Positions 28,241-48,732 of a stretch of 64,000 nt of DNA are shown here, piece by piece (position 1 is the first letter of the stretch; each line of letters begins with the position of its first letter). The notes under the pieces were generated by a model. That model was not told where the DNA came from. It ran no database searches and saw nothing but the letters and a program-made list of their open reading frames with translations. The stretch is from positions 441 to 64,440 of the forward strand of contig LBSX01000007.1 in NCBI GenBank assembly GCA_000990355.1. Direction: 5' to 3'. A program made the translations under genes and the position numbers. Source of the DNA: Candidatus Magasanikbacteria bacterium GW2011_GWC2_37_14. GTDB taxonomy: Bacteria; Patescibacteriota; Patescibacteriia; Magasanikbacterales; UBA922.

Positions 28241-28600
28241 CTATAAAGCAATAAGATAAGGATAAAAAATAAAAATACCAATTATTAAAGCTACCAAAGA
28301 GGACAAAAATACTGCTCCGGCCATAATTTCTTTTATTAATTTTACTTGACCAGAGAGTCGTGGCTCTACTACATCCAAAAGTCTTTCAACCACACTGTTT
28401 ATTACTTCCATTATTAATACTAAAAAAATTAAAAGCAATAAAACAATTTTTTCACTCTTGGTTAAAGTCCAAACAAACATTAAAAAAATAACCAAAATAG
28501 CCAAGTAAACTTGTAGTCGAAAGTTTTGTTCACTTTTAAATACAGTTCTCAATCCATGTAAAGATTCTTTAAAACTAGAACCTAATCTTTTGAAATTCAT
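28241..28600 (-). CDS. dgkA: diacylglycerol kinase family membrane protein
   Basis: 119 aa, 3 TM, with the conserved EVINSVVE motif. Confidence 0.75.
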   Translation of the reverse strand: MNFKRLGSSFKESLHGLRTVFKSEQNFRLQVYLAILVIFLMFVWTLTKSEKIVLLLLIFLVLIMEVINSVVERLLDVVEPRLSGQVKLIKEIMAGAVFLSSLVALIIGIFIFYPYLIAL

Positions 28601-29025
28601 AATAATTCCTTTAACAATTTTTCTTGTGTAACAAACATTTTTTTAGCTTCTTCTTTTTTTAGATGATCATGTCCCAAAAGATGCAGAATACCATGAACCA
28701 TCATTCTAAACATTTCCTCCTCTACGTTAATTTTAAGTTCTCGTGCCTGTTTAATTATTTGCTTCTGGCAAATAAAAATATCTCCAAAATCTCTTTCTGC
28801 TTTTTTAAAAAAAACATTATCTTCTGTAGCAAACGATAAAACATCAGTTACCAGGTCATACCCCCTATACACTTTATTCAAATACTTTATTCTTTTCTCC
28901 CCCACCAAATGTACACTAAGCAAGCCATTTTTTTTAAGTTTCCCAAAAATCAAATTTACTAATTTTTTAATTTTTTCTTTTTTAAAAATTTCTTCTTTTA
29001 CCTGTGAAAAAACCAAACATTCCAT
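28597..29025 (-). CDS. ybeY: rRNA maturation endoribonuclease YbeY
   Basis: HGILHLLGHDH metal-binding motif. Confidence 0.85.
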   Translation of the reverse strand: MECLVFSQVKEEIFKKEKIKKLVNLIFGKLKKNGLLSVHLVGEKRIKYLNKVYRGYDLVTDVLSFATEDNVFFKKAERDFGDIFICQKQIIKQARELKINVEEEMFRMMVHGILHLLGHDHLKKEEAKKMFVTQEKLLKELL

Positions 29026-29031
29026 ATATTT

Positions 29032-30129
29032 TTAAGGTGTCACTGTCGTATTAACTGTTGGTTCACCCAAAACAGCTTGTTCCGGAATTTCTACCAAAGT
29101 TTTATTGGGACGAAAACTTTGTAACATTAATTGCATAAAATGTCGATAACTTATAAAACCACTACTGTCTGTATGGTAAGTAATCACATACACTTTATCA
29201 AAATTAACAAAATAACCCACCAAATCATCTCCTCTTTTTTTACCATTTTCTTTAAAACGGTTAACAAAATCACTAAGATCAATAAACCTCTGACCCGTGG
29301 CTGTTTTAGCAAACCAATCAGCAAAAGTATCATTTTTTTCTTTGTCCACTACGTCTATTTCTATGTAATCACCATCACTAGCGCTAAACAACACTTGCCG
29401 GCCTTCTTCATCCACTGTGCCAATTTGCCAGGTAGCAGGATAATAAACACGATATTGCCACTTGGGATCAATATATTCCTGTACTACGCCAGAATCCACT
29501 ATTTTCATTGGTGCCAAACCTATTGGATTATAAAGATTATAAACTTCTTGGCCATCATAATAACCATCTTTATCTGTGTCCCATACACCACTATCTGTCC
29601 CCAAAGTTTCTTCTTCAAGGTCTGTTAAAGAATCATTATCCATGTCGGCACTATTGGTCAAAAATACTGGCAAAAACTCCAAAGTTTTAACTTTACCCAC
29701 CAAAGTAGAAGTAGTGTTTTCAACCAAAGTCGTGGTGGTTATTTCTTCTATCACAGAAACCTGTTCCGTGGTAGTTGGCTTGTTTGTATTGTCTGTAGTA
29801 ATTTTTGGTAGTTCTGGCTCAACAACTACTGGCTTAGCAAAAAAACCAGCCTGATTTAAATAATACCAAGTAATTACACCTGTCACCAACAAAAACACCA
29901 CACCAATTACACTATACAAAACAATTTTATTTTTAAATAAACCCGCCAATCGATTATTTATACCAACTTCTGGCAATAATTTTTCTGGTTTATTTTTTAT
30001 TTTATCTTTGTTTTGATAATGGATAACTGGATCTTTACCACCATAAAATTCTTCGGGTATCACCAACATCGGCACATTAATGGCCGTTTTAATTATTTCT
30101 TTGTTTTTCTTTCTGAAAAACATAAACAC
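29032..30129 (-). CDS. membrane-anchored protein with thrombospondin-type-3-like Ca-binding repeats (paralog 1)
   Basis: N-terminal TM segment and DMDNDSLTDLEE...WDTDKDGYYDGQEVYNLYNPIG. It shares the D-x-D-x-DG...Y-N-P-x-G module with the next two genes. Confidence 0.6.
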   Translation of the reverse strand: MFMFFRKKNKEIIKTAINVPMLVIPEEFYGGKDPVIHYQNKDKIKNKPEKLLPEVGINNRLAGLFKNKIVLYSVIGVVFLLVTGVITWYYLNQAGFFAKPVVVEPELPKITTDNTNKPTTTEQVSVIEEITTTTLVENTTSTLVGKVKTLEFLPVFLTNSADMDNDSLTDLEEETLGTDSGVWDTDKDGYYDGQEVYNLYNPIGLAPMKIVDSGVVQEYIDPKWQYRVYYPATWQIGTVDEEGRQVLFSASDGDYIEIDVVDKEKNDTFADWFAKTATGQRFIDLSDFVNRFKENGKKRGDDLVGYFVNFDKVYVITYHTDSSGFISYRHFMQLMLQSFRPNKTLVEIPEQAVLGEPTVNTTVTP

Positions 30130-30131
30130 AA

Positions 30132-30947
30132 TTATTTAGTTTCTGGTAATTCAAAAATTTTTCCAAGGCCCGTTGGACTATAACCATTTTTTACTTCTGC
30201 TCCATCCAAATAATTATCACCATCACTGTCTGGATTAAGTGGATTGGTTTTCCAAATAATTACCTCATCACCATCACTTAATTCATCTTTATCTGTATCC
30301 CAATTATTGGGATCTGTACCAATTTCTACTTCTCTGGTATCATCCAGGCCGTCTCCATCTTTGTCAATTGGTTCACCAAAAAGCACTTGATCATCGGTTA
30401 TTTGTGAACCAATATCAGTAACAGTGTTATTTTCATTCCCAGTATTAACCACAGTATTATTATTTGCTTCTATTTGATTATTATCTATGTTATTAGTTGT
30501 ATCGGCAGTATTATTTTCCACCACAGCTGGTTGGTTAGAATTAATATATTTATTATAAGCCCACCAACCTCCCATTCCCAAACCACCCACAACCAAAACA
30601 ATCACCAACAAAGTAATAATTACTCTAGTGACTACTGGTTCTTTCAAATCATAGTTTTCTGTTGATTTAATAATTGGTGGAGTAGTTTCTTCTGGCATTG
30701 CCGAAAAAGACGGTCTACTAACCGGTATTTCTACATTATTAACTTCTGGCTGAACTTTTGGAGTAAGCACCCCCGCAGCCAAAGCACTGTTCCCTGCTCC
30801 TGGTTCCAGAGTAACTTCGTTTTCTTCGGTAGCAACCCCAGAAAACATATCTTCGGGCTCGCCTTGACCAAATGGAACAGGCTCGCCTACTGGCAAATTG
30901 CCAGGAATTCCCGAGGGATTTTTGGTATTGATTGGTTCATCAAACAT
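30132..30947 (-). CDS. membrane-anchored protein with TSP3-like repeats (paralog 2)
   Basis: DKDGDGLDDTREVEIGTDPNNWDTDKDELSDGDE...DSDGDNYLDGAEVKNGYSPTG. Confidence 0.6.
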   Translation of the reverse strand: MFDEPINTKNPSGIPGNLPVGEPVPFGQGEPEDMFSGVATEENEVTLEPGAGNSALAAGVLTPKVQPEVNNVEIPVSRPSFSAMPEETTPPIIKSTENYDLKEPVVTRVIITLLVIVLVVGGLGMGGWWAYNKYINSNQPAVVENNTADTTNNIDNNQIEANNNTVVNTGNENNTVTDIGSQITDDQVLFGEPIDKDGDGLDDTREVEIGTDPNNWDTDKDELSDGDEVIIWKTNPLNPDSDGDNYLDGAEVKNGYSPTGLGKIFELPETK

Positions 30948-30988
30948 ATAATTGTCCTGTCATTCCCGCGCAGGCGGGAATCTAAAAA

Positions 30989-31393
30989 TTATTTAACTAA
31001 TTTACCTGCACCTAATGGATTATAATTATTAATAATTTCATAGCCATCCCAATAGCCATCGTCATCAGTGTCTACCTTTGTTGGATCAGTTTTATAAACT
31101 TCTATTTCTTCTTTATCAGTTAAACTATCACCATCAGTATCAGAATCACGATTACTAGTGCCAATTTCTTTTTCTTTGGTATCCAAAATTCCGTCACCAT
31201 CCAAATCATTGGGATCTAATTTTAATTTTTCAAAAACTACTGTTTCCACTGGCTTAATTTTATTATCTAATACTACATTATTTTTATTCCTTAAAAGTAG
31301 CCAAAAACCAGCCAAGATTCCTGCTCCCAGTATTAAAACCAATAAACTAATTAAAATAATTCTTTTCATATTATTTTTTAAGTAGTAGGACAA
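30989..31393 (-). CDS. membrane-anchored protein with TSP3-like repeats (paralog 3)
   Basis: LDGDGILDTKEKEIGTSNRDSDTDGDSLTDKEE...DTDDDGYWDGYEIINNYNPLG. Its first codons overlap the end of the giant gene. Confidence 0.6.
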   Translation of the reverse strand: MSYYLKNNMKRIILISLLVLILGAGILAGFWLLLRNKNNVVLDNKIKPVETVVFEKLKLDPNDLDGDGILDTKEKEIGTSNRDSDTDGDSLTDKEEIEVYKTDPTKVDTDDDGYWDGYEIINNYNPLGAGKLVK

Positions 31394-34300
31394 CTCTCCA
31401 AAACATCCGCACTTACTTTCACATCACATTCATCAGTTCTAATCACCCCATCTGCATGGTCAACATCTACTGGAGCAATAATCGGCGCTGTATTATTTCC
31501 CCTAATCTTAAACACATACCAATACTTAGCCCGTGCATTACTACTAGTGCCCGAGGCATTACGAATACTAAAAGTACGGGTTGGTTTGTAAATTGAATAA
31601 GCTGGTATTTGATTTGCATGAGCCGTATATACTTCTACTTGCAAATTACTTCTCTTGGCGGGCCCACCAATAAAATTAGTCAAAGCACTCACCGTAAACA
31701 CATAATCTTTGCCAGCTCCTGCATCTACAGTAAAAGATTGTACATAAATTTTTGGAGTATGCACTTTGGCATGTACACAAACCAAACTTGTACAGCCATC
31801 CGGAACCCAATATTCATCTGCATTTTTAATTATTGTGCCAAAAGTTGTTGTTGGCAAACGATTGTGTGTCCATTCAGTCGGACTATTAGTTTTTATTACA
31901 TCACCCACAAAACCACCTAATTTATTTTCTTCTTCGCTCGTCCATTTTACTACTATTCTTACCGTGCTTGTTGGCACAGCTGGAGACATTATAACATCAT
32001 TCTCAATCCTAAGCGATTCATCATTAACTGGATAATCAAAAATATCACCATAACCATTTTTCCAAAAATCATTTGCAGTACCACCTCCCGAAACTTTGGT
32101 TTGCAAACCATTTTCATTAAAAAATACTTTATATTCATCTTTACACTGCAAATTTGTTTCTATACCCTTTGGTAAAACGTCTTCAACTGTAATTAATGAA
32201 CTTGATTTATAAAAATAAGCATAATTAGTAGGTACACCATTTTCATTAATATTTAATTTAATTTGTTTAAAATAATATAAATAACCTAAAACATTGGGAT
32301 AATTTCTATACAAACTAACCAATTCAACTCCATAAATACTGTCCCAATTAAACCCTTGCTCAATCATTGGATTTAAAATAGCAATCATTGGATTGGCACC
32401 ACCGTCTACTCTGTCCATTTCAGCACAATTTATACAATTATTTTGTAAATCCAGACAATTGTTTTCACAACTAAAATTTCCTTTATCATTAACATTACAA
32501 GACTTATTTGCTTCACCTACTACTTTGGTGGTAGGGTTATAAGTGCTACTTACTACCGTACCATCACTTTTTACATCACATTTTTCAAAAACTGGAGTGG
32601 TACTACTCACAATTACATCAATCTTACCATTACCACAATAATCAGTTGTTTCTTTAGTAAAGACTTTTTTACAATCACCCGAACACCAGGTGCAAATTTT
32701 GCCTTTGCCATATTCTGGTGTACATTCCAAACCATTTTGTGCTCCCATATCGCAAGCCTCTTTTAAATTTTCATCCACAATTCCGTTGCCACAATAATTT
32801 TCCTGGCCACTTTCTAGTGCGCAACTAATAGAACAGCCATCGCCATTTCTTGGTAAGCATTTTCCTTTACCAATTCCCGCGCAAGTATTATCAGTAGTAC
32901 AAGGTTTTTTGTTTTCACATTGCATACCGTCGTCACAAGTTTCACTACCATTCACTAATCCATCACCACAAAAAACAGTTGCTTTTAATTTACAATTATT
33001 TTGGCATTTGTCTGTATCTACATCATTGCCATCATCACACTCTTCCTGGCCAGCGTCTAGTACTCCATCACCACAATAAGAACCATATTTCTGACAATCC
33101 CACGAACAAGAATATTCTTTATTTTTGGCATAACTGGCAATAATCGGCACACAACGTCCTTTATATTCAGAGGTAGTTTTTACATCATTCAAAAAGTCAT
33201 TTACATTGCTGTAACCTGACAAACCCTCATCAATATTTATACTTTGGGTATTAATGTTACAATCATCATTTGTACGACAAACAAAATTAGTATTTAGGGC
33301 ACAATAACCTATTTTATCTGTACAAATATCATTTCTTTCCTTGGCCCAACCTGTTTTGTTGGCATCATTCAAATCCTGCAATGCCTGCATTAATATTACC
33401 GAAACTTCATCACAAGCATCACCAATACCATCACCATCAATATCATTTTGTAATGGGTTATAATTATTTGGACAATTGTCCTCTGTGCCACATTTTTCAT
33501 CTTTATCCACATCATTTTCTGCACAATTAGGATAATAATCACAAGCATTACCGAGTCCGTCACCATCCGAATCTGGCCCATTTGATTTTTTTAGTTGCAT
33601 TTCAGAAGGTAAACAAAAAGGCTGTCCCGCTGGACAAGAAGAACTCATAACACTGTTAGCATTTTTGGGACAATTATCCAAATCATTTATTATTTCGTCA
33701 CCATCACAATCTAAGCCTGGAAAACTCGAAAGATTACACTGTATTTTTAGTGGATCTTCTAAACCTAAATCAAAATTAATGATATGCGATTGTAAAGTAT
33801 TTATGTCTACCAACTTATCCAAATTATATTGATTAGCATAATTAAGCCAATTTCCTAAACCACTAATTAAACCACCATTTACATTAACAGAAGTCTCACT
33901 ACAATTACCTTGAAACACCCAATTCCCAGTTCTAATTGAAGCTTTGTTTTGTGCCAAAGGAGTAGTGGAAGTAAAGTCACACAACTCCAGCGGTTTATTA
34001 TTTGCATCTTTATCTATCAGACTATCTATACTACTATAAACAATATTATGAAAATTTCCACAATAAGCTTGATGTGGCCCCATACAAGCCACCACCCCAA
34101 CGCTATTTTCTCCCGCACAATGCCCATAAGTACCATTTAATTGTCCTTCATCACAAAACTCCGCACTTTCTTTTTCTCCATTACCACAAGTAAAATCCGC
34201 CTGGCAAGCACCATAACTCCAAGTACAAGTATTGGTACAAGTACGAGCCGCTTTGGTAGCACCGGCGCAAGCAGTCAAAACACCACCAATTTTTGTTTGG

Positions 34301-37300
34301 GCTGTTAATTCATTCTTTCCTGGTGGTTCACATTCTTCTCCTGGGGCGACAATACCATCACCGCATTTTTCGCCAAAAGCTCTAAAAGGAGTTTCACTAT
34401 TGCACCAAGGTGTGGTAGTAAAAGTACTAGTATTAATTTTTTCTTCCACAATATTACTACTTAGAGCAAAAAACTCTAATGGGGAATGTAATAAATAACT
34501 CTTGGTAGAAGAAACATAATTATATTCATAAATATTGGAAAATACCGGGCAATACACTGTGGAACTAGGGGCATACCAGCAAGTTTGTTTTTCTGCTCCC
34601 AACCCTGCATCTGTACAACTAGTCCAGGCATTTACTGGATCTTGTGGTAAAGTGCCAACCTTGGCTCCCAATGTATTATTCCAAGAAGGCCAGAGCGACA
34701 AGGTAGCTCCAGGAATAAAAGTCCCGCCTGGCAAATTTCCTTCAAAAGTAACTTTATTCAAATTACTAGTAAAATAACTAGCTAATTTATTTTGCATTCC
34801 CGCAATATCATTCAAACGACGCAAATCACGGAAAAATTTGGTTTTGGCATTGGAACAAATTCCCGAAGTATTTGTTTTAATATTGCCATTTGTTTCTCGA
34901 CATTCAAAGTCTGTATTACAAGAAAATTGATCATTAATATTATCTTGATTATCAAATAGTGTACCATCATTTAAACAATATTTATGATCGCTAATATTAA
35001 TATTAAATTCCAAAGAACCTAAAATTTGTTCCAAAACTTTTTTGGTATTGGCTTGTGCACCTTTGTTTAAACTTATTTGATAAATATTATTCCACAAAGC
35101 ATAATCATGGCCCGTGGTAGTTACCAAATTAAGTGCATTTATATAATAATTGTCACCATCTTGTACTGCATCAAAGCCGGCCAATTCTACTCTCTTGGCA
35201 TTTTGAGTATTGGGAAATCTTTGGGGACTGGTATACCAATCATAGGCCGATAAACGATCAGGATTTTGAAATATTTGTATACCAATTACATCATCGTTAA
35301 TGTTACTAAATAACAAATATCGGCGTAAGGTATCATCTGTAAGTGTAGGATTCATTATCTCTTCTACTTGTTCACCACCGCCAGTACATTGGTCAGCAAC
35401 ACTACTCGTTCCAACTCCACTACAAGTATCTGCTACCAAACTAGCAGGAGCAGCACCCACACAAGTATTAACAACTCCAGAAATTTTCCAAATAGGATCA
35501 AAAGGTACACAGTTCTCACCAGCATTACAACCAGTAGCGTCAGTACAAAAACGATAAGTTGAAGCATAATCTGGTGGATATTGGCCAGTTATTGTACAAT
35601 ATTTACTTTCAGTAACAAGATGTCTAAATTTGCAACTCTTATCCTTATAATATTGAAAATTATAAGCACCACCATATTTACTACAAGATACATACAAAGA
35701 ACTCTCACCAGGCAATACATACCAATCTGTTGTCGGGCAGTCAGTATCAACATTACAAACAGTTGACTGATTATTTGACTTTAATGAACAAGCACCTGGC
35801 TGTGCTACTGAATAATCAGGACAATCGGCACTAGTAGTACAACTTGTACTTGGACTGTGGACACATTTTCCAGGGGTGGCAGTGACTATTGGTGGACAAC
35901 TAGCATCAGTTGTACAACTTGTACTTGGGTTCTGGGCACACTGTCCGGGTACCACAACAATATTAGTCCCAGTATCTTTTTCAATTACTGGCAACAAATT
36001 CATGAATGGTAAGTCATCGGTGGTGGTGCCCGAACGACCTGCATCGGCACAATAACTTAAACTAAAATTATATTTATTATCCTTTAATGGCAGCCAACTA
36101 TCCTCGGTTTCTGGTTCTGGCCAAGGACGTTCACAAAATTTAGCAGTAAGCTCGGTACGTCCAGTAAATATTTTTCCAACCTGATTATTGGTAAGACTTA
36201 AATCATGGGTAACTTTGGCTTGAGCTACAGCTATCAACGACCCTTCTACTTGTCGTGAAGCAATATCTACACTGTCACTCGTGGCATCAAGTGGATTATC
36301 CGAATCTGGAATTGCAAAAACACGATTGTTTGCTGGGGCCCAATGCCAAGTCCAACCATAAGCTGGTGGTAAAGAAACAATTATTTGTCCATTTTCACTT
36401 TCGGCAAAAGAATCAAAAAATTCCGAAGTATTGGCTTTTTTATACCAAGCCTTTTCTGGACTAACTGTTACCTTGTTAATTTTACAAACATCTTTGCCTG
36501 TTTTAAATAACCAAACATCATCTAACTGGTCATTATTTTCTCCATCTTTGGCTCGGATACCTACTCCCCGCACGTCTTTAATGCCACTGTTTCCACCTTT
36601 TAAGATTACGGCATATTCGGTATCTTTTTCTAATAAATTATTTATATAAATTGCAATTGTGGTAGTATTTACAAAAGTTTCATTTCCTACAGTAATTTCT
36701 TCATAACGAACTTTTGACTGCACACCCACACTACCCTCACACCACACTACACTTGCAGGAGTAATAGTAGTGGCTACCGCTTGATCGTTGGTAAATAAAC
36801 TAACAAAAAATAATTTTATTTTCTGCCAAATGTTATTTAAAAAACCAAGCAATTTAGTATCTTGTTCCAAAGCATCTATTCCCATTAATTCATTAGCCCA
36901 AGCTGTACGATCAATAGTATTATTATTAGCACAATTATAGGTGGAACTAGTAGTGCCTTTTAGTAACACAATGTTATCTAATACTGTTTGTTTGTCAATT
37001 TCATTATTAAAAGTTGCTTCTAGATAAGTATTAAGACAAACTCCTTCACTACCCTCCTCAAAACCAGCACCATCAATTGGGTAAACTGTATTTCTTACCG
37101 GACGATAATAACAACAAGAATTTTTACCTACACCAAAAGTATTTACTTCTTGGGCACCATCGGCATCACCCGGACAATTATTATACCAGCCAGCAAAATC
37201 TCCATATTCTGCTTGGGTCTCAAATTCTTTATAACCACACTGTAAATAATATTTACCAGTACCAGTTTTTTGTTCTGCTGTTTGTAAACCTACTTTATCA

Positions 37301-40300
37301 CCATTAGCGTTGGTAAAAGAAATAGCTTTGGCATTAATTGGTGTATATTGGTCGTCAGTTGCTGGGTCTACCTCACCTTCACCAACAGCTGTGGCTACTT
37401 GCACGGGGTTTTCTCCTAAATTTTCGCCCGACAAACTAACTTCACAAAATCCATATTCACCCGAACCAGTTTCTCCATCACCACAGAGCGAAGGTTGTGT
37501 ATAATTTGGCGAAGAACCGCGCAAAGTACAATCTGGCCGACACCACTGTTCATTTGTGTCACATTTTAAATCACTCACATCTAAATTTTCCTCATCATAA
37601 TCTTCATTACAAAGATTTTGCAACAAACAGCTGCTATTACAAACTTTGTTTGCTGGTTGAATAGTAGTAAAAAGGGTATCACCTTCATTGTGAACTTTTA
37701 TTTTCTTGGCAACATCATCAATAATTTCACACTCTTCACCAGATTCTACTATATCATTGCCACAAATACTTATGGCGTTATTACAAGCCTGGGGAACATC
37801 TGCAGCTGTTTGTTCATCAGCTGCTTGTTCATCACACCAAGCCTGCGAAAGGGCTGTGCCAATATGTAAACAATTACTAGAACAACCTTTTTTCGTTGCC
37901 GTATCTTTGGTATCACATTCTTCACCCAATGTTACCGAACCACTACCACACCAAGAAACAGTTACCTGTCCAGCTGGTTGTGTAGATGCGGAACCTTTCC
38001 AAGTGCAATTATTACTTTTACAATAATTTTTTTGATCCATATCTCCTGGGTCACATTCTTCACCTAGAGCAGTAGAAACAAATCCATCACCACAAAGTCC
38101 AAGATTAATTCCAACCGTGGTAGTAGTTAAATTATTTCCCGTGTGCAAACAATTATAACCACAACCTGCTTCGGTGTCCGGGTCATCAATATCACAATCT
38201 TCACCAGCGCCTACTTCACCATCTCCACAGTAAGTTGGCACTTCAATTAATTTTTTGTCACTGCCCAGTGGCTTACAGACTGGACTGCAAAAAGAATTTA
38301 AAGGATCGCCAGTAGAAAAATTAGAAATAGTCGCTACTTCGGTAACATCAGCGGTCCATTCCCAACCAAAACTCCAGGGATTAAGATCTTGTCCATAGGG
38401 ACTACAACTATCGGGCTTGGTTTTTGGTAAAGACAAATATTTAGTTTTTTCTCCGATTAAAAACGAAGTAAAATTATTTGGCACTACTTCTACTTTTTCG
38501 GCTTTGCAAGGGGTGTCATCATTTTTGGTTCTAAATTTCCAGGCAAAAGCTTGTAAATCATTACCGACTTGGATTGAACCATTGGCTTTAAAAGCCCCAA
38601 TGGCTTTTATTTCACTTGTTAAACGCACTAAATACCAAGAATTTTTTACCAAATAAGGATCACTCACATTTATGCGCAAAGTATTGTAAGAAGACATGCT
38701 CTCATCAATTGAAATTAAATCATTCTGTTCATCCAATTTATCTTCGCTACAAAGTTCATCACCACACATATAAAATTCCAAACCATCAGCAAAAGTACTA
38801 GTTACCATCATTTGATTAAATTGCGCGCCAATACCAGCATTTATACAAGCTTCCTCACAATTTGGCCAATAAGAAATTACTTTCGGATCAGACAAATCCA
38901 CTACCAAAGTACTAGTGCCGGTAATAGTAGTTAAGTTATCATCAGTAACATTTTGTAAAGTATTGGTAGTGGCAGTAATTTTTACATTCCAAGGAGTGGT
39001 ATTGGACCACGCAATAATTTTTGCACGGCTATCTATATAACGCGGAGTTAATTTATTGTCACTAGGGTCACTCCCTCCCCGAGAAATTGTACTGCTTACC
39101 CAAGATTCATTATCCGTTTGCCAATTCCAGCCATATCCATCCACATTTAATACTGAACATTTTTGACTGCCCCGACCCCAAACATAATAAAAATAAGGTT
39201 GAGCTGGCGGATGCGGGTTAAAAGGATTAACCAAATCCTGTGGATGAGAAAAATCTTGCACCACACCCAAAAGATGAGTTACATAATTATCGGGAATAAT
39301 CCCAGCCGAAGCTAAAGTACAATTACCATCACCAGTCTTAAAATCAAAACAATAAGCAGTACCATCACTGCAGGGCTTGGTTTTTTTCAAAGGTTGATTA
39401 AATTCTACAAAATTACCCAATGTTTCTCTACGTTCGGCAGAAAAAATATTATCTTTTAATTCTACATGATACCAAGTATTAGAAACCAAATTTGTGGTAC
39501 CATCATGAATATACAAAACTGGATTATTATAAATCGGACCATTTACCTCTACTTCTTCTTTGTCGCTACAATCAATATCACCATTCTTTGCTTCAGCACA
39601 TTTGTATACTGTCACTTTGCCAACAAAATTATTTTTCATCGGCATGTTAAAACGCACCGCAATACTGGCATTCAAACAAGCATTAGTACCACCTTCCCAA
39701 TTTTGCCAAGGCACTGGTGTGGGAAAAGGCACAGTAACAGTTCCCTTACTCCAATTAACTTGGTCACAAACTTCCATTACTTCTGGCAAATGAGGAATTA
39801 AACCAGTAGTAAAACGCCACACATAACCAGCACTATCGGGCTGACCTTTACAACTTAGAGTACTTAATTTCCATTTACCAGCTTCTGCCCCCTCGCTACA
39901 ACACTGAAACCCAGGCATAGCTGTGTTACTATCTCGACAGTCATTAACCAAATAATTTACACTATTTCCAATTCTGTTATTTTTATCTTGTACTTTAATA
40001 GCACCGGTTTCCATGGTTAAGCCATTTTCATAAGGAATAATTGTTTGAATTTTTTCACCATCAATTGATTTGGAATAAGCAAAACCAACAGCATTTATTG
40101 CCTCACTATTTTCCAACCAACCACCACTGGTATTAGGCGACCAAAATTTAACCGTTGGTGTATCGGAAAAATTAATCCCATATAAATTTAAAAATTTTCC
40201 CGCTGGCAAAGGTGCCGGACCAGAAGCTGGAGCAATCGCACAAATTCCGGGCTGTGGCTCTCCTACCATCAAACCAAAAGTATTTTCTCCACTACTAGCC

Positions 40301-43300
40301 AAATTAAAATTATTTTTTAAAATTAAATTTACTTCATCTAATGTTTTTTCTGCTACTTGTGTTGAATGAATAAATTCTAACTTGTTAATTTTTCCATAAA
40401 ATAATCTAGAATTGTCATCTAATGAAGAAATAATATTACCTATTCTAAATGGCAAACTCTCTTTTTTTATTAAATCCGGATCTAAACCCAACTGGATTTT
40501 CGGAATAATTGGTAATGGATTACCCCCTTCACTTAAATAAACATTCATTTTATTATCCTTAATTTCAATCTTTAAATTATAAAGATTGGTAGAATTGTTT
40601 AATAAAGCCACATTCGCTCCATAATCACGCATCGACTTATCAAGAAAAACAGCCGAATGAATAAACAAATATCTTTTTACAATACCATCATTTTTTACTT
40701 GTTCATTTATATACACTTGTTCTTTGCCATCATTCCTAAAAAATAAAAATCTATATTTCATCCACAAATCACCACTTTCAATAAAACCAACATCCGATGA
40801 GGTTGTCAAATTATCTAGTTCAATATCAAATTCAATGGCAGTATCATTTAACAAAGAATAATCACCATTTGTGTCATTGTAAACTTTTGCTTCTGCCAAA
40901 GTATTTATACTATTACCAAGATTTAAACCAATGATATCCGCTAAATCAGCACTCTCGGTTACTATTTTATAAACTGTTTTACCACCAATAAATTTGGTAT
41001 CAATATTTTTTGGTATATTAACTATCACTTGAGTATCTTGCCAATTTTCCGAACACTGTGGTGGTAAACCAACAGTGGTTAATTCTTTACATTTAGTAGA
41101 ATCATAATTTATTGCACAAGCTTTGGCGTCGTTACTATTACCTGCCAAATAAACATGTCCACTAGAACCAAAATTAGACCCATAAATGGTAATTAAACTA
41201 CCAGGGGTTGTGGTAACTGGATCAATAGAACTAATAATTGGTGTTTTAACTGAACCATCACTCAAAATTTCAAATGGCACGCCATTACTATTTTCACCAT
41301 TCACTGTAGCTACTACCCCAACTTTACCTGCACTCAAAACTGGCACAAAAGACCTTACCACAGCATCAGACCAACCAGCACCAACAATTATGGCTTGTAC
41401 CCCACCAAATTTCATGGTGCTACCACTTTGGGTATCACCCAATCCTTTGCCCTGTATTACTACTTGCGCCTTAGATTCTGCTTCTCCTGGTGTAATCGCA
41501 CAAAGACCAGGACGTATAGCGTCATTTTTTAAAAACCAACCGTCATTTGGCCCTGGCATTACACCCCATTCAGGAGTAGTAAGCCCAGCAGTGTCATCAC
41601 TTGGTTTAATTGATTCGCCAGCAATCGTTAAAGTTTTAGCTGATTCTAATTTAATATCACTCAAAAAATTACGATCTAAATCAATATCAGCGGGCACTTC
41701 AATAATTACCCATTGGTCATGCCAAACATTTGTACCTTCTCCGCAATCAGCCAAATTTACATCTAGCCAATCTCCAGCACTTACTTCTCCATCTTGATTT
41801 TTATCTATTCCAAAACTCACTTTGCCTTTGGTACTACCAAAATTTCTTCCCAAAATTGTTACCCAATTACCAGCTCCCCCGTCCATTGGTTCTACATTTT
41901 CAATCAAAGGAAAGGGGCGACAAATTTTGTCATTAACATTTCCTGCGCCAACAGGGTCAATACATTTAAAACTGTAAGCGCAATCAAGGTCATCATGGCA
42001 CGAAGCCCCATCACCACCTCCACAAGAACCACCAACATCTGTCCCTGTTTCATTGCCATTTTTTATTCTATCTTTGCAATGAGCTCCAACCAACATATAG
42101 GTACTAGTAACTTCGGCAAACTTACTATCAATATCATTTCCTCGCAAAGTAAGAGAAATACGCTGTGGAACAATTAAATTTTCTGGAAAAAATACACGTT
42201 GACTAAAATTATAAGGATTATCTATAGGCGCATCCGAAGTGCTAGCAGGGCCATTAAAATAACCATAAATTCTCTCTCCTAAATTTTCAAAACTTCCATT
42301 ATTGAGTGTTAAACCTACATAACCAGCGCCACTTTCATCACTTTCACTGGTTCCAAAATAATATGCACTACCAACTGGCAAACGATCATCAGCTATCTCT
42401 TCTCTCACTCCACTTTTGTTTACCATTTCTACAACTAAGGGAGTTAAAATTGGGGCTAGACTATCTTTTACCGCACTCGTAGTTACGGTAAACTCTGCTT
42501 CGGCACTAAAATCTCCACAACTAGTTTTTAATTCCAAATTATAACCATCAATATCTTTGATATTGGGGCTAACAATTACTTGGTAAGTACCAGCTGGCAA
42601 ACAACTGGTGCTATCTTCACATTTTGTTTCACCAATATAAGTAGCCTGTATTAAACTATTGGCATCTGCCAACTCTCTACCCAAAACTTCAAAACTAAAT
42701 TCTTCGGTAGAGGTAACATTATTACGTAAAATTGTTAGATAATTTTTTATTTCATTACTACTCATGTTTTGCAGTTTTCTGCTAAATGTTACCCGAATAA
42801 CTGCATTATTCATTTGGGTATTGGTAGTTTTTGGGGTAATGCTTTGTACGACAAAATGTTTGTCTTCACAAGAACATAGAGTAGGAAATTCTCTGCAAAA
42901 AACACTCTCACATTCATCACGATTTTCCAAAACATATTTTAAATCGCGACAAGACAAATTGTCTCCATTGCCATCACCAAAACCTGTAGCGTCGGATAAC
43001 TGATTAATTACAAACTGAGCAATAGCCAAAGCTGAAAGAATAATCATTATACCAATCGCGGCATTAATTAAAATCTTTCTTGCCTGTCCAACTTTTTCTT
43101 CATTTCCCGCCGAAGTCATATAAACAAAACCACCATAAAGCATTAAGCCTAGGGCAATAATACCAAGTAAACCCAAAATAGCTCGGATAATCTGGGCAAT
43201 AATTAAACGGATATCAGTAGCTGGAAGATCTAAACTACCCCCGATTCTGTTTAAGCCAAAAGCATCTTGAGCAAAAACATTTGTTTTGAATAACAAAAAC

Positions 43301-43365
43301 ATCCCTAATAATAAAATTATGGAAAAGAAAATATTTTTTATAATTTTATTTTTACTCCAAAACAT
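31378..43365 (-). CDS. giant (3995 aa) secreted/surface protein: N-terminal signal plus two-helix membrane hairpin, Big_5-like Ig domains, many Myxococcus-type cysteine-rich repeats (CGDGxVxxGEECD) and TSP3 repeats
   Basis: Single uninterrupted ORF. Motifs read directly: CGDGEVGAGEDCD, CGSGSVTLGEECD, CGDGIVAPGEECE, CGDGVLDAGQEECDDGN, and DNCPNNYNPLQNDIDGDGIGDACD. Confidence 0.85.
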   Translation of the reverse strand: MFWSKNKIIKNIFFSIILLLGMFLLFKTNVFAQDAFGLNRIGGSLDLPATDIRLIIAQIIRAILGLLGIIALGLMLYGGFVYMTSAGNEEKVGQARKILINAAIGIMIILSALAIAQFVINQLSDATGFGDGNGDNLSCRDLKYVLENRDECESVFCREFPTLCSCEDKHFVVQSITPKTTNTQMNNAVIRVTFSRKLQNMSSNEIKNYLTILRNNVTSTEEFSFEVLGRELADANSLIQATYIGETKCEDSTSCLPAGTYQVIVSPNIKDIDGYNLELKTSCGDFSAEAEFTVTTSAVKDSLAPILTPLVVEMVNKSGVREEIADDRLPVGSAYYFGTSESDESGAGYVGLTLNNGSFENLGERIYGYFNGPASTSDAPIDNPYNFSQRVFFPENLIVPQRISLTLRGNDIDSKFAEVTSTYMLVGAHCKDRIKNGNETGTDVGGSCGGGDGASCHDDLDCAYSFKCIDPVGAGNVNDKICRPFPLIENVEPMDGGAGNWVTILGRNFGSTKGKVSFGIDKNQDGEVSAGDWLDVNLADCGEGTNVWHDQWVIIEVPADIDLDRNFLSDIKLESAKTLTIAGESIKPSDDTAGLTTPEWGVMPGPNDGWFLKNDAIRPGLCAITPGEAESKAQVVIQGKGLGDTQSGSTMKFGGVQAIIVGAGWSDAVVRSFVPVLSAGKVGVVATVNGENSNGVPFEILSDGSVKTPIISSIDPVTTTPGSLITIYGSNFGSSGHVYLAGNSNDAKACAINYDSTKCKELTTVGLPPQCSENWQDTQVIVNIPKNIDTKFIGGKTVYKIVTESADLADIIGLNLGNSINTLAEAKVYNDTNGDYSLLNDTAIEFDIELDNLTTSSDVGFIESGDLWMKYRFLFFRNDGKEQVYINEQVKNDGIVKRYLFIHSAVFLDKSMRDYGANVALLNNSTNLYNLKIEIKDNKMNVYLSEGGNPLPIIPKIQLGLDPDLIKKESLPFRIGNIISSLDDNSRLFYGKINKLEFIHSTQVAEKTLDEVNLILKNNFNLASSGENTFGLMVGEPQPGICAIAPASGPAPLPAGKFLNLYGINFSDTPTVKFWSPNTSGGWLENSEAINAVGFAYSKSIDGEKIQTIIPYENGLTMETGAIKVQDKNNRIGNSVNYLVNDCRDSNTAMPGFQCCSEGAEAGKWKLSTLSCKGQPDSAGYVWRFTTGLIPHLPEVMEVCDQVNWSKGTVTVPFPTPVPWQNWEGGTNACLNASIAVRFNMPMKNNFVGKVTVYKCAEAKNGDIDCSDKEEVEVNGPIYNNPVLYIHDGTTNLVSNTWYHVELKDNIFSAERRETLGNFVEFNQPLKKTKPCSDGTAYCFDFKTGDGNCTLASAGIIPDNYVTHLLGVVQDFSHPQDLVNPFNPHPPAQPYFYYVWGRGSQKCSVLNVDGYGWNWQTDNESWVSSTISRGGSDPSDNKLTPRYIDSRAKIIAWSNTTPWNVKITATTNTLQNVTDDNLTTITGTSTLVVDLSDPKVISYWPNCEEACINAGIGAQFNQMMVTSTFADGLEFYMCGDELCSEDKLDEQNDLISIDESMSSYNTLRINVSDPYLVKNSWYLVRLTSEIKAIGAFKANGSIQVGNDLQAFAWKFRTKNDDTPCKAEKVEVVPNNFTSFLIGEKTKYLSLPKTKPDSCSPYGQDLNPWSFGWEWTADVTEVATISNFSTGDPLNSFCSPVCKPLGSDKKLIEVPTYCGDGEVGAGEDCDIDDPDTEAGCGYNCLHTGNNLTTTTVGINLGLCGDGFVSTALGEECDPGDMDQKNYCKSNNCTWKGSASTQPAGQVTVSWCGSGSVTLGEECDTKDTATKKGCSSNCLHIGTALSQAWCDEQAADEQTAADVPQACNNAISICGNDIVESGEECEIIDDVAKKIKVHNEGDTLFTTIQPANKVCNSSCLLQNLCNEDYDEENLDVSDLKCDTNEQWCRPDCTLRGSSPNYTQPSLCGDGETGSGEYGFCEVSLSGENLGENPVQVATAVGEGEVDPATDDQYTPINAKAISFTNANGDKVGLQTAEQKTGTGKYYLQCGYKEFETQAEYGDFAGWYNNCPGDADGAQEVNTFGVGKNSCCYYRPVRNTVYPIDGAGFEEGSEGVCLNTYLEATFNNEIDKQTVLDNIVLLKGTTSSTYNCANNNTIDRTAWANELMGIDALEQDTKLLGFLNNIWQKIKLFFVSLFTNDQAVATTITPASVVWCEGSVGVQSKVRYEEITVGNETFVNTTTIAIYINNLLEKDTEYAVILKGGNSGIKDVRGVGIRAKDGENNDQLDDVWLFKTGKDVCKINKVTVSPEKAWYKKANTSEFFDSFAESENGQIIVSLPPAYGWTWHWAPANNRVFAIPDSDNPLDATSDSVDIASRQVEGSLIAVAQAKVTHDLSLTNNQVGKIFTGRTELTAKFCERPWPEPETEDSWLPLKDNKYNFSLSYCADAGRSGTTTDDLPFMNLLPVIEKDTGTNIVVVPGQCAQNPSTSCTTDASCPPIVTATPGKCVHSPSTSCTTSADCPDYSVAQPGACSLKSNNQSTVCNVDTDCPTTDWYVLPGESSLYVSCSKYGGAYNFQYYKDKSCKFRHLVTESKYCTITGQYPPDYASTYRFCTDATGCNAGENCVPFDPIWKISGVVNTCVGAAPASLVADTCSGVGTSSVADQCTGGGEQVEEIMNPTLTDDTLRRYLLFSNINDDVIGIQIFQNPDRLSAYDWYTSPQRFPNTQNAKRVELAGFDAVQDGDNYYINALNLVTTTGHDYALWNNIYQISLNKGAQANTKKVLEQILGSLEFNINISDHKYCLNDGTLFDNQDNINDQFSCNTDFECRETNGNIKTNTSGICSNAKTKFFRDLRRLNDIAGMQNKLASYFTSNLNKVTFEGNLPGGTFIPGATLSLWPSWNNTLGAKVGTLPQDPVNAWTSCTDAGLGAEKQTCWYAPSSTVYCPVFSNIYEYNYVSSTKSYLLHSPLEFFALSSNIVEEKINTSTFTTTPWCNSETPFRAFGEKCGDGIVAPGEECEPPGKNELTAQTKIGGVLTACAGATKAARTCTNTCTWSYGACQADFTCGNGEKESAEFCDEGQLNGTYGHCAGENSVGVVACMGPHQAYCGNFHNIVYSSIDSLIDKDANNKPLELCDFTSTTPLAQNKASIRTGNWVFQGNCSETSVNVNGGLISGLGNWLNYANQYNLDKLVDINTLQSHIINFDLGLEDPLKIQCNLSSFPGLDCDGDEIINDLDNCPKNANSVMSSSCPAGQPFCLPSEMQLKKSNGPDSDGDGLGNACDYYPNCAENDVDKDEKCGTEDNCPNNYNPLQNDIDGDGIGDACDEVSVILMQALQDLNDANKTGWAKERNDICTDKIGYCALNTNFVCRTNDDCNINTQSINIDEGLSGYSNVNDFLNDVKTTSEYKGRCVPIIASYAKNKEYSCSWDCQKYGSYCGDGVLDAGQEECDDGNDVDTDKCQNNCKLKATVFCGDGLVNGSETCDDGMQCENKKPCTTDNTCAGIGKGKCLPRNGDGCSISCALESGQENYCGNGIVDENLKEACDMGAQNGLECTPEYGKGKICTWCSGDCKKVFTKETTDYCGNGKIDVIVSSTTPVFEKCDVKSDGTVVSSTYNPTTKVVGEANKSCNVNDKGNFSCENNCLDLQNNCINCAEMDRVDGGANPMIAILNPMIEQGFNWDSIYGVELVSLYRNYPNVLGYLYYFKQIKLNINENGVPTNYAYFYKSSSLITVEDVLPKGIETNLQCKDEYKVFFNENGLQTKVSGGGTANDFWKNGYGDIFDYPVNDESLRIENDVIMSPAVPTSTVRIVVKWTSEEENKLGGFVGDVIKTNSPTEWTHNRLPTTTFGTIIKNADEYWVPDGCTSLVCVHAKVHTPKIYVQSFTVDAGAGKDYVFTVSALTNFIGGPAKRSNLQVEVYTAHANQIPAYSIYKPTRTFSIRNASGTSSNARAKYWYVFKIRGNNTAPIIAPVDVDHADGVIRTDECDVKVSADVLESCPTT

Positions 43366-43377
43366 AAAAAACTATTC

Positions 43378-45549
43378 TTATTTGAAAATAACTGTTTGAG
43401 AAATATCTTCGGTTTTTAAAGCCGACAAACATTTAGCAACTGTGGAGGTAACTTGTAAATCAGTATCGGTTGTTTGTACACAACCAGTATCTTTGGCACT
43501 CGCTGTTTCTACACCTACACAATTTTCTGTTGACAGAATACTACCATCATCTTCGTTGTAAGTAACTATACAAGCAGTTGATTGTCCTTGTGCCCCTTGT
43601 ACCACCGGGCCTCTTCCTGGATAAACACAATTTTGTACCAAATTTTTTATTGTACTAGGGATAGAAGGAAAATAATACAAATCTGCATTGTTTGGCCCAA
43701 AAATTCGGTGGTCCAGTTTGGTAACAGTTTTTCCAGCAAAAGTTTCGGAAATTGGACAAAACCAAATTGGCTCTACACCATTTACCGCAACCGGATATTC
43801 GTCTAATTTTATTCCATAAACAGAGTCTAGCCACATCCGACTATTAAAATGTATTTTTAAAGGTGCATTGTCAGTTACATTCTCCTCATCAATATCTGGT
43901 TCCACAGTTTGGATATAAGGTGAGGTACGATCTATTTTATTTATAATATTAAAATTCCAATAAAAATTATCTGGATTTCTTTCATTATCATTAATTAAAA
44001 GTGGATTACTAATTGTCGGTTTATGCGGTGTAGCTAATCTACCTTGGTTATTGTCATCCAAAGCATTACTCGCCATATCCATTGCACCCGAAAAAGGCAT
44101 ACCCTCAAATGGTAATTGTGCCCCTGGCATTAAATCTGCCGTACGTACCAGTGCCTTAAAGGGTTTGGTACAATTTTCTGCGTTAGAGGGGCAATCCAAT
44201 GGCAAACAATACATAGTTTCGCCACAACTATTTTGTCCACAAGCCAAACTTGAAACAAATTCCAAAGTACGGTAACGATTGGATAATTTCCAATTACCCA
44301 AAGTAGTAGTTGGAGTAACTCCAAAATTAGTATTTAAAATAACATTGGCAAAACTAGTGGGGTCAGCAATTATTTGTCCTTGCACACCAGTAGGATCCAT
44401 GGCCTCACTAAAATTTATTTGGATAATAGAATTACGTGCCGGTGTATCTTTGCCTGTTTCATTGCCAGTGGGATAAGTATCTACTACATATGGTGGAGTA
44501 AAATCTATTTGAGTATTGGTCTGAAAATTCCATTCATAATCCTTACGGCCAATATTCTTGGAAAACACTCCAGGTGTATCTCCTGGGGCTGGTTCTTTGT
44601 ATAAAATATTATTGGTTAAACGCACACTATACCAAACATCAGTGGTTTCACTGCCAATAAAATCATAAGGTTTAAAAACAAAAGTACGAGTATTTTTTTG
44701 TGCACCATCTTCATAAATAGTAAGAGCACTAGCCGTTACCAATTGCCCACCATTGGCAGTAATACTACCAAGATTGGCAAAATAAGTGTCAGTTGCCATA
44801 AAAATACCAATTGTACTAGTATTCATGGCGTCACATTCTGTAAGCCTGTTAATTTTATTATCTTTATTAACATCCAAGCAATCACCATAATAAGGAATAG
44901 CAGGAACCGCTCCACCAAACTCACAAGTAGTGGTAGGTTTATTATCTCCACCCCAACAACTACTATTCGTATTTACAATAATCGAAGCTGGATCAATTGG
45001 CTCAAAAAAAGTAACAACTATTGAGGTATTGCGTGGCACAGCTGTTTGATCACGGAAAGGATAATGGTCTTTTACCACTTGGCCCAAAGCGCCACTACCA
45101 GCAAAAGTGTTAATAATTGGCACCCCAGCAGCACCACGCCCGTTGTTTTGATTGCCGTCCGAAAGCATGTTAATTATAAATTGAGCAATAGCAAAAGCCG
45201 ACAAAATTATTGCCAAGCCAATCACGGCATTGATCATAATTTTTTTGCCTTTTGACACTTCTTCTTCGTTGCCACCCGAAGTCATAATCACATAACCAGC
45301 ATACATCATTATTACCAAAGCAATAGTTCCCAGCAATCCAAAAATTGCTCGAATGATTTGAGCAATAATTATACGAATATCAGTTTTTACCAAACCAATA
45401 CTATTTTCTACTGGTTGCAAACCAAACAAGTCATTGTTTTGTGCCTGCGCTGGCAAAACTTGCCAAAACAAAAAAGCCACCACAAAAACTAACAGCCCAA
45501 GGATGGCGGCTTTTAACCAAGAATGATTTTTATTTATCCAAGGCAGCAT
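43378..45549 (-). CDS. 723-aa secreted protein sharing the N-terminal membrane-hairpin domain of the giant protein, with Big_5-like (..IQINFSEAMDPTG..) domains
   Basis: N-terminal residues 50-125 align residue-by-residue with the giant protein (IRIIIAQIIRAIFGLLGTIAL.. vs IRLIIAQIIRAILGLLGIIAL..). Confidence 0.8.
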   Translation of the reverse strand: MLPWINKNHSWLKAAILGLLVFVVAFLFWQVLPAQAQNNDLFGLQPVENSIGLVKTDIRIIIAQIIRAIFGLLGTIALVIMMYAGYVIMTSGGNEEEVSKGKKIMINAVIGLAIILSAFAIAQFIINMLSDGNQNNGRGAAGVPIINTFAGSGALGQVVKDHYPFRDQTAVPRNTSIVVTFFEPIDPASIIVNTNSSCWGGDNKPTTTCEFGGAVPAIPYYGDCLDVNKDNKINRLTECDAMNTSTIGIFMATDTYFANLGSITANGGQLVTASALTIYEDGAQKNTRTFVFKPYDFIGSETTDVWYSVRLTNNILYKEPAPGDTPGVFSKNIGRKDYEWNFQTNTQIDFTPPYVVDTYPTGNETGKDTPARNSIIQINFSEAMDPTGVQGQIIADPTSFANVILNTNFGVTPTTTLGNWKLSNRYRTLEFVSSLACGQNSCGETMYCLPLDCPSNAENCTKPFKALVRTADLMPGAQLPFEGMPFSGAMDMASNALDDNNQGRLATPHKPTISNPLLINDNERNPDNFYWNFNIINKIDRTSPYIQTVEPDIDEENVTDNAPLKIHFNSRMWLDSVYGIKLDEYPVAVNGVEPIWFCPISETFAGKTVTKLDHRIFGPNNADLYYFPSIPSTIKNLVQNCVYPGRGPVVQGAQGQSTACIVTYNEDDGSILSTENCVGVETASAKDTGCVQTTDTDLQVTSTVAKCLSALKTEDISQTVIFK

Positions 45550-48731: not shown

Positions 48732-48732
48732 G

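Follow-up and report, generated by a model that had tools for sequence, protein, structure and literature searches.

A conserved five-gene locus of Magasanikbacteria encodes putative VirB2-type pilin-domain proteins with very large ectodomains

A five-gene block in the genome of Candidatus Magasanikbacteria bacterium GW2011_GWC2_37_14 (GCA_000990355.1) includes genes for proteins of 723 and 3995 amino acids (aa), here named p723 and the giant, whose N-termini resemble one another and recall the small pilins of type IV secretion systems (T4SSs). What such an N-terminus does at the head of proteins of this size, and what the locus is for, is the question addressed here. For this genome, the analysis covered one 64 kb window, the 64,000 nucleotide stretch of contig LBSX01000007.1 from position 441 to position 64,440, and counts of T4SS and pilin genes given for the window hold for that stretch. 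A first-pass annotation, made without database searches, had read the N-termini as pilin hairpins of the TrbC/VirB2 family and the locus as a host-attachment organelle of an episymbiont-type bacterium; the last description fits, as the host genome belongs to the Patescibacteria (Magasanikbacteria). We consider it highly probable that p723 and the giant are VirB2-type pilin modules carrying extracellular ectodomains, encoded in a conserved core locus. In our best reading, the five genes form a module of the cell surface that is conserved in Patescibacteria of the Magasanikbacteria type (GTDB class ABY1). In order of transcription, the five genes are:

43378–45549, minus strand: p723, putative modular pilin-domain protein of 723 aa (intact open reading frame, ORF)
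31378–43365, minus strand: the giant, putative modular pilin-domain protein of 3995 aa (intact ORF)
30989–31393, minus strand: s134, 134 aa protein with a single transmembrane (TM) segment and thrombospondin type 3 (TSP3) repeats (ORF, Pfam)
30132–30947, minus strand: s271, 271 aa single-TM protein with TSP3 repeats (ORF, Pfam)
29032–30129, minus strand: s365, 365 aa single-TM protein with TSP3 repeats and a PsbP-like end (ORF, family alignment)

The first-pass annotation had described the N-termini of p723 and the giant as near-identical. They are homologous, sharing 54% identity over 123 aa (BLASTP, E = 3e-33), but near-identity does not describe them, and even the 76-residue hairpin core is only 70% identical. 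As no BLAST match was found past residue 131, similarity between the two ectodomains was rejected. The proposed arrangement, in which a signal peptide precedes a hairpin of two hydrophobic helices with a short loop between them, was borne out by the sequence and by an AlphaFold2 model. The parts of the two proteins, with immunoglobulin-like domains abbreviated to Ig-like, are:

45442–45549, minus strand: predicted signal peptide of p723, residues 1–36, with a putative A-Q-A / Q cleavage motif (sequence)
45157–45387, minus strand: hairpin core of p723, residues 55–131, consisting of a helix, an MTSGGNEE loop and a helix (PF18895, AlphaFold2)
43381–45102, minus strand: ectodomain of p723, residues 150–723, Ig-like/Big_5 beta-sandwich (Pfam, AlphaFold2, alignment)
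42991–43221, minus strand: hairpin core of the giant, residues 49–125 (PF18895, NF045849)
33376–33711, minus strand: Cys-containing TSP3 (Ca-binding) repeats of the giant, residues ~3219–3330 (Pfam TSP_3, E = 0.0014, below the gathering score)

The model of p723 was built from a 116-sequence alignment and has a predicted local distance difference test score (pLDDT) of 89.5 and a predicted template modelling score of 0.80. It consists of a signal helix (residues 3–29), a disordered low-confidence stretch, a helix (58–89), a loop (90–94), a second helix (95–136), a low-confidence linker (134–150) and a beta-rich ectodomain that extends to residue 720. The hairpin helices have pLDDT values above 90, and a separate model of the hairpin only agrees with them. 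The A-x-A position at the end of the p723 leader is conserved in the pilin-domain alignment. This ending is of the signal peptidase I type and not of the prepilin-peptidase type, and the type IV pilin domain PF07963 (N_methyl) was not matched by any of the five block proteins in Pfam.

The assignment of the hairpin to a pilin family rests on sequence profiles, because its fold matches are equally shared by unrelated hairpins; hundreds of unrelated helical hairpins scored equally in the fold search, and no T4SS pilin was in the top 60. Both proteins match the T4SS_pilin family PF18895 above its gathering score of 26.6 (Pfam), p723 with 37.2 bits over residues 61–125 and the giant with 35.7 bits over residues 52–119, and the family is also matched by 33 of 33 close relatives. 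The family originally proposed, TrbC/VirB2 (PF04956), scores below its gathering score of 27.9, with 18.4 bits for full-length p723 and 23.3 bits (E = 7e-5) for its N-terminal 139 aa, where the match covers profile positions 5–98 of 98. Matches to PF04956 at E ≤ 0.01 were found in 18 of the 33 close relatives, with a best E value of 1.2e-7. Thus, a TrbC/VirB2-type hairpin is supported above threshold by PF18895 but not by PF04956 itself. Against the NCBIfam model NF045849, 'pilin-like conjugal transfer protein', which has a cut-off of 40 bits, the giant scored 42.1 bits and p723 fell below the cut-off with 33 bits, but it is an 'equivalog' model of a small protein of integrative and conjugative elements (ICEs), and the length and context of the window proteins do not fit it. 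Matches of a few pilins to Holin_9, DctQ and DUF898 were set aside as hydrophobic-helix noise.

The closest relatives of the N-terminal 139 aa of p723 are free-standing PF18895 proteins of 118–221 aa, which are up to 66% identical (E values down to 1e-38) and some of which carry the NCBI name 'pilin' in Candidatus Magasanikbacteria. The hairpins of p723 and the giant are as similar to the free-standing pilins as the free-standing pilins are to one another. The first-pass annotation had allowed that profile similarity might be lacking and conservation limited to the two paralogs; instead, profile matches were found and hundreds of relatives exist. Only p723 and the giant, among the 636 six-frame ORFs of the window, match a local pilin profile (E = 1e-47 and 5e-45, respectively), although this was built from p723, the giant and the free-standing pilins, making their own matches partly circular. 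The likeness of the two N-termini is well beyond what chance would give.

The p723 family comprises 627 matches, the best 120 of which are 38–75% identical to p723 over near full length, bar one 549 aa partial entry. Nearly all have the PF18895 plus PF13205 architecture, and most of the named members are Magasanikbacteria. A contig scan with p723 returned one short contig. The ectodomain of ~570 aa matches Big_5 (PF13205; 47.7 bits, Pfam) and is disulfide-containing, with 15 Cys in the window protein, 10 of them invariant across the family. Its fold matches are generic tandem Ig-like domains, the S-layer protein SbsC (the second Foldseek match, with a probability of 0.93 and an E value of only 1.8e-3) and CopC-type single domains. 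Mean identity within the family is 64% in the hairpin core versus 44% in the ectodomain, and the entropies are 1.11 and 2.04 bits, respectively. The near-invariant polar residues D57, R59, T90, G93, E95, K102 and N107 are also present in free-standing pilins.

In the giant, the hairpin is followed by Big_5 Ig-like domains, IPT/TIG domains, C-G-D-G...E-E-C-D repeats (DUF4215 / TIGR02232), TSP3 repeats with D-x-D-x-D-G motifs at residues 3219, 3265 and 3308, and a conserved C-terminal region. The ectodomain of Ig-like, Cys-repeat and TSP3 parts that had been proposed was therefore confirmed by Pfam, NCBIfam and a motif search. As the giant contains 160 Cys and its hydrophobic segments are confined to residues 7–124, with none beyond residue 125, an extracellular location is the natural reading of the ectodomain sequence. 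Profile scans of the giant, which did not include a motif search for LPXTG, found no match to an RTX or sorting-signal family. The G + C content at third codon positions (GC3) is 0.22 in the giant and 0.22–0.25 in p723 and the giant, matching that of host genes.

When a 689 aa internal segment of the giant was used as a query, only two partial proteins were returned, and giant orthologs were reached via neighbouring genes. Those in four other genomes (L002, L004, L088 and L089) are 3435–4201 aa long and start with PF18895, and those in L002 and L004 are colinear with the giant and 35–44% identical to it. The colinear giants contain lineage-specific inserts, namely VWA in L002, Laminin_G_3 and a beta-propeller in L004, and Laminin_G_3 in L088 and L089, which suggests that the framework of the ectodomain is kept while part of it is swapped between lineages. 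In L017 (FLOH01000043.1, 99–3668 and 3948–8441), the giant ortholog is split into a 3435 aa gene and a 1497 aa ORF, the latter beginning within the Cys-rich repeats and having no signal peptide or pilin domain. The gene may really be divided in this relative, or a frameshift or a fault in the assembly may be responsible.

The block had been placed downstream of ftsA-ftsZ-dgkA-ybeY on the same strand. The adjacency and the common strand are correct, but the direction is reversed; because all of the genes are on the minus strand, the block is transcribed first and lies upstream of ybeY-dgkA-ftsA-ftsZ. The order of transcription is lepB, hisS, an S21-like ORF, yqeY, p723, giant, s134, s271, s365, ybeY, dgkA, ftsA, ftsZ, nrdR. 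The flanking genes, identified by Pfam matches, are:

47777–48406, minus strand: lepB, upstream context
46353–47771, minus strand: hisS, upstream context
46037–46288, minus strand: S21-like ORF, upstream context
45575–46027, minus strand: yqeY, directly upstream of p723
28597–29025, minus strand: ybeY, directly downstream of s365
28241–28600, minus strand: dgkA
26951–28213, minus strand: ftsA
25544–26863, minus strand: ftsZ

Genes in the block are separated by at most 12 nt or overlap, with the sole exception of 41 nt before s271. The spacing remains tight downstream, with 6 nt before ybeY, a 4 nt overlap between ybeY and dgkA, and 27 nt before ftsA. The start assigned to s134 is uncertain; it is a TTG codon that overlaps the 3' end of the giant gene. 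Neither the promoter scan (82 versus 72.6 ± 9.4) nor the terminator scan (15 versus 12 ± 3.5) differed from chance, and no operon boundaries are claimed.

Synteny in relatives, one of the checks that had been suggested, was examined by using the s365 family alignment to retrieve 80 metagenome loci. In ~37 of the 43 loci of at least 9 kb, the giant gene, s134, s271, s365, ybeY, dgkA, ftsA and ftsZ are on the same strand and in the same order; the other loci of this size end at a contig edge, and the order is kept wherever the contig reaches. Giant orthologs (C-terminal parts) and s134 orthologs recur at the same position in ~40 independent contigs. The upstream order lepB-hisS-yqeY-p723-giant was found in L002, L004, L088 and L089. 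The full block is assembled on one contig in two relatives (L089 + L040, and L088 + L017, the latter with the split giant). As the gene order is conserved and the codon usage is native, we conclude that the block is a long-resident, vertically inherited core module and not a mobile island.

A relative that also carries the five-gene locus has an array of 13 pilin-domain genes encoding proteins of 118–357 aa (L006; FLOH01000043.1, 44391–64795, genes at 4792–15614). PF18895 is flagged in 12 of the 13 in precomputed Pfam data, and all 13 match the local pilin profile. Cys-rich modules are present either between the signal peptide and the hairpin (in proteins of 243, 318 and 357 aa) or after the hairpin (193–271 aa). 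Two genes for 23S_rRNA_IVP four-helix bundles and one for a solute-binding protein break up the array, and there is no virB4 within 10 kb of it. Because the termini of a VirB2-type hairpin are external and Cys-rich modules occur on either side of it, the pilin family is, judged by these sequences, modular at both ends, with p723 and the giant apparently the extreme of a modular-pilin series.

Comparison of the p723 and giant hairpins in five genomes revealed a mean identity of 64% within genomes versus 56% between genomes. Recent gene conversion between the window hairpins was rejected, as third-codon identity is 52% and the longest identical run is 11 nt. The within-genome likeness therefore appears to be maintained by selection, and this fits p723 and giant hairpins that work side by side.

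In each of the remaining block proteins, s134, s271 and s365, a single TM segment is combined with D-x-D-x-D repeats of the TSP3 type; Pfam and the alignment agree with the original description of three small TM-anchored proteins with D-x-D-x-D(G) Ca-binding-type repeats. Scores for TSP3_bac (PF18884, gathering score 25) are 33.2 bits for s134 and 39.1 bits for s271. s365 falls below the reporting threshold for TSP3_bac, and among the s365 family members 17 of 41 match TSP3_bac and 6 of 41 match PsbP. The three proteins have in common the motif D-G-(Y/x)-x-D-G-x-E-(V/I)-x-N-x-Y-(N/S)-P-x-G, which is the last, degenerate TSP3 repeat and ends in YNPLG in s134, YSPTG in s271 and YNPIG in s365. 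The claim that all three proteins end in Y-N-P-x-G needs amending. The motif is near the C-terminus of s134 (...YNPLGAGKLVK) and s271 (...YSPTGLGK...), the latter having S in place of N, but ~160 residues follow it in s365. In s365 and its orthologs, the 150–250 residues after the motif form a domain that weakly matches PsbP.

s271 has an acidic N-terminal part of ~105 aa that is probably cytoplasmic, a TM segment, an N/T-rich linker and TSP3 repeats. In s365, a probably cytoplasmic N-terminal tail is followed by a TM segment, a T-rich linker and TSP3 repeats with DGYYDGQEV-x-NLYNP-x-G. The s365 family (205 cluster representatives at E < 1e-30) has an invariant P-x-x-F-Y-G-G-x-D-P in this tail (P25, F28, Y29, G30, G31 and P34, within residues ~20–35).

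Further genes in the window also encode secreted or possible surface proteins. A 347 aa secreted Cys-rich protein whose thrombospondin type 3 repeats are of the eukaryotic type (E = 2e-39 against Pfam TSP_3) is encoded at 6397–7440 (minus strand), adjacent to the gene for a 729 aa secreted Cys-rich protein with Dicty_CTDC repeats (7625–9814, minus strand; E = 7e-31). The two genes have a G + C content of 0.54–0.60 and a GC3 of 0.60–0.78, with a G + C content of 0.40 in between; GC3 is 0.19–0.29 in all of the other genes checked, including the Cys-rich region of the giant. Either the pair is, as it looks, a recent acquisition from a donor of high G + C content, or this part of the contig is a chimera. 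Fibronectin type III repeats are the only recognisable domains of a 730 aa protein encoded between the genes for pyruvate kinase and pyruvate phosphate dikinase (19040–21232, minus strand), which may be another surface protein.

Elsewhere in the window, a 706 aa ORF without a Pfam match (51138–53258, minus strand) lies between a uvrD-like helicase gene and ndk, and a 691 aa gene is called in its place in the JGI copy of the contig. A Peptidase_C39_2 family protein is encoded upstream of the UvrD-like helicase (55617–56480, minus strand), and this pair is kept in L088. A stand-alone 88 aa ORF with a GIY-YIG nuclease domain (48465–48731, minus strand) abuts tRNA-Ile (48732–48806) and tRNA-Val (48892–48966); Rfam found only three tRNAs in the window.

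How the block proteins might work together has to be considered in the light of what is known of T4SSs in this phylum. VirB4 is found in 2417 of 3035 Patescibacteria assemblies, and the Magasanikbacteria (class ABY1) entries examined in the published Table S1 are VirB4-positive. VirB2-like pilins are present in 1948 Patescibacteria assemblies that also carry VirB4, and in 1135 of these 1948 the pilin module is tied to T4SS clusters; pilin arrays of 2–11 genes are common, and no PrgB-type adhesin was detected (PMC12102498). Southlakia cannot grow as an epibiont without its T4SS and pilins (PMC10633639, PMC12857230), and polymerisation into a T4SS pilus has so far been shown for no Patescibacteria pilin (PMC12857230). 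In modular type IV pilins, a bulky adhesive module is carried on the pilin, probably at the filament tip (PMC8179133).

We propose that p723 and the giant would leave the cytoplasm through Sec and that signal peptidase I would cleave them after A-Q-A (p723) or V-F-A (giant). The hairpin would insert with both ends outside and the GGNEE-K/R loop in the cytoplasm, as in VirB2, TrbC and TraA pilins, and with this predicted topology the C-terminal ectodomain would be extracellular. The pilin module may couple p723 and the giant to a polymer of the genome's free-standing VirB2-like pilins, via a chromosomal T4SS of the monoderm type. With ectodomains so bulky, the two proteins would be incorporated rarely or at the tip, and there they would present adhesin-like domains to the host cell in the role of VirB5 or PrgB-type adhesins. 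The three bitopic TSP3 proteins would be Ca2+-binding, membrane-anchored accessories of the same surface structure, which may be a host-attachment organelle. The step into a T4SS pilus is put forward tentatively and may well prove wrong. Taken as a whole, the explanation by modular VirB2-like pilins, adhesin-like ectodomains, pilus coupling and TSP3 accessories has about an even chance of being right.

Several observations weigh against it. No T4SS ATPase, other T4SS gene or free-standing pilin is present in the window, and no T4SS gene or pilin was found within 10 kb of the locus in the relatives examined; the p723 and giant genes adjoin only each other, with no pilin array or virB4 beside them. 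Neither the fold search nor PDB sequence-profile searches gave a specific link to solved VirB2/TraA pilins. The latter, made with the p723 family, pilin-domain and s365 family alignments, returned no meaningful relative and no solved VirB2/TraA pilin, the weak matches being to a TSP3-like stretch of a biofilm surface protein and, in low-complexity sequence, to DotF. A ~430 kDa ectodomain on a VirB2-type subunit is without precedent, and a 5-start pilus could accommodate the giant only as a very minor subunit or at its tip. Conserved single-copy ectodomains at a housekeeping position resemble a core component of the envelope more than they do an adhesin that determines host range and evolves fast. 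Finally, hydrophobic helices draw on a restricted alphabet, so that conservation of the hairpin is partly compositional, and the co-variation of the paired hairpins rests on five genomes.

In the main rival explanation, the hairpin has been co-opted as a plain membrane anchor. p723 and the giant would then remain in the cytoplasmic membrane and, together with the TSP3 proteins, would build a permanent structure of the envelope or coat that does not depend on a T4SS, for example fibrils, a scaffold resembling an S-layer or a wall-spanning spacer. The constant location of the block beside housekeeping and division genes, its close packing against ybeY-dgkA-ftsA-ftsZ, the lack of nearby T4SS genes in the window and in the relatives examined, the conserved single-copy orthology of the ectodomains, the match to SbsC and an ectodomain size that is hard to fit in a pilus all favour this explanation. 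However, a plain anchor needs hydrophobicity only, yet the hairpin keeps a polar signature (D-I-R, LGLLG, MT-x-GGNEE, K/R) and is the best conserved part of p723. The paired hairpins also track each other within genomes without gene conversion, and the same module is tied to T4SS clusters in the published assemblies (see above). We regard a plain anchor as distinctly possible, though we lean against it.

A link to division can also be imagined, in which the block proteins act at the septum or pole and the small ones replace the FtsQ/DivIB-type proteins that normally precede ftsA. A cytoplasmic tail, one TM segment and an external domain make up the general FtsQ/DivIB layout, and s365 has a probably cytoplasmic tail with the invariant P-x-x-F-Y-G-G motif, one TM segment and a globular domain outside the cell. 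Wherever the contig extends far enough (~37 of 43 contigs of at least 9 kb), s365, ybeY, dgkA, ftsA and ftsZ follow one another in this order. However, no FtsQ, POTRA or DivIB profile was matched, the external domain of s365 instead weakly matching PsbP, and ybeY and dgkA stand between s365 and ftsA. Gene order kept in reduced genomes need not imply a common function, and nothing ties the pilin-domain proteins to division. Such a role is very improbable. A trivial likeness, with a generic signal peptide and TM segment in two paralogs and an artefactual giant ORF, would agree with the sub-threshold PF04956 score but is excluded by PF18895 scores above the gathering score in both proteins and all 33 relatives, by E values down to 1e-38 against free-standing pilins, by intact orthologs of the giant that begin with this N-terminal domain in four further genomes, by C-terminal parts of such orthologs in ~40 contigs, and by native codon usage.

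The preferred explanation remains that of modular VirB2-like pilins. The Patescibacteria T4SS and pilin array are essential to epibiotic life in the one species tested, their target or cargo is not known and no adhesin has been found. The locus supplies concrete adhesin candidates, a conserved pair of very large ectodomain proteins bearing a pilin module. Were p723 and the giant to enter or cap the filament, they would define host-cell contact, would add modular subunits to the biology of VirB2-type pilins, as is already the case for type IV pilins, and would provide lineages that are not in culture with targets for labelling, cryo-electron tomography and metaproteomics. If they are anchored in the membrane and nothing more, the locus would still encode a core structure of the envelope in a large group that has not been cultured, with the pilin fold reused as an anchor. 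The furthest-reaching version is that VirB2-type pilins, known only as ~7 kDa filament subunits, have become a general surface-display carrier in Patescibacteria, and that in Magasanikbacteria a conserved, probably essential gene pair caps or decorates the T4SS filament with 60 kDa and 430 kDa ectodomains and forms a host-contact organelle with three Ca-binding membrane partners. The pair would then be the missing adhesin or tip (the VirB5/PrgB equivalent) of Patescibacteria T4SSs and the first modular VirB2 pilins. This version we consider unlikely.

The PF18895 family and its occurrence in Patescibacteria are already known, and some p723 orthologs are labelled 'pilin' or 'Ig-like domain-containing protein' in databases. 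No description was found in the searchable literature of VirB2-type pilin modules fused to ectodomains of 600–4000 aa, nor of the five-gene block or its fixed position before ybeY-dgkA-ftsA-ftsZ. The nearest known systems are the Patescibacteria PF18895 pilins, such as those of the essential T4SS-cluster array of Southlakia epibionticum ML1 and the 'Sec-secreted array' of Nanosynbacter lyticus TM7x (PMC12102498, PMC10633639), which are of the same family, phylum and layout, with several paralogs per genome. However, the described pilins are small (~110–150 aa) and in arrays, often beside virB4, whereas p723 and the giant are 723 and 3995 aa, and their genes, unlike those arrays, keep a constant place among housekeeping genes, in the company of three genes for TSP3 proteins and apart from any T4SS gene seen.

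The TrbC/VirB2/TraA (PF04956) pilins are alike in their leader peptide, two-helix hairpin, basic loop facing the lumen or cytoplasm, and external termini. Their profile is covered end to end by the window proteins (E = 7e-5 to 2.5e-3), yet the matches are below the gathering score, and these pilins belong to Gram-negative hosts, whereas the host here is a monoderm and the C-terminal extension is enormous. The Mbov_0395 / MMCAP2_0565 family (NF045849) of Mycoplasma ICEs provides a link to monoderm conjugation that matches the MPF-FATA ancestry proposed for Patescibacteria T4SSs. It is a small protein of 80 positions on a mobile element, whereas the genes described here are on the chromosome in conserved order, and neither the window nor the flanks seen contain genes for conjugation.

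In their proposed role, target-cell contact, p723 and the giant resemble T4SS adhesins and tip proteins (VirB5/TraC, and PrgB of Enterococcus pCF10), and in their long, Ca-binding, Ig-like, repeat-rich build they resemble giant Ig-repeat adhesins (SiiE and the 7651 aa Mobiluncus adhesin). No sequence or fold relation was found between the window proteins and VirB5/TraC, PrgB, SiiE or the Mobiluncus adhesin. Proteins of the VirB5, PrgB and SiiE types are separate from the pilin and are either LPXTG-anchored or secreted by a type I secretion system, whereas here the pilin module would itself be the anchor.

A parallel in design is found in the modular type IV pilins PilB and PilC of Streptococcus sanguinis (PMC8179133), in which a carrier module and a short linker are likewise followed by bulky adhesive modules (vWA, lectin, Ig-like). 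Their fold and machinery are unrelated, as they have a class III signal peptide, a prepilin peptidase and a PilB-type ATPase. The most extreme multi-domain example singled out among them is 860 aa (PMC8179133), compared with 3995 aa for the giant, and the VWA domain in the giant ortholog of L002 parallels their vWA module.

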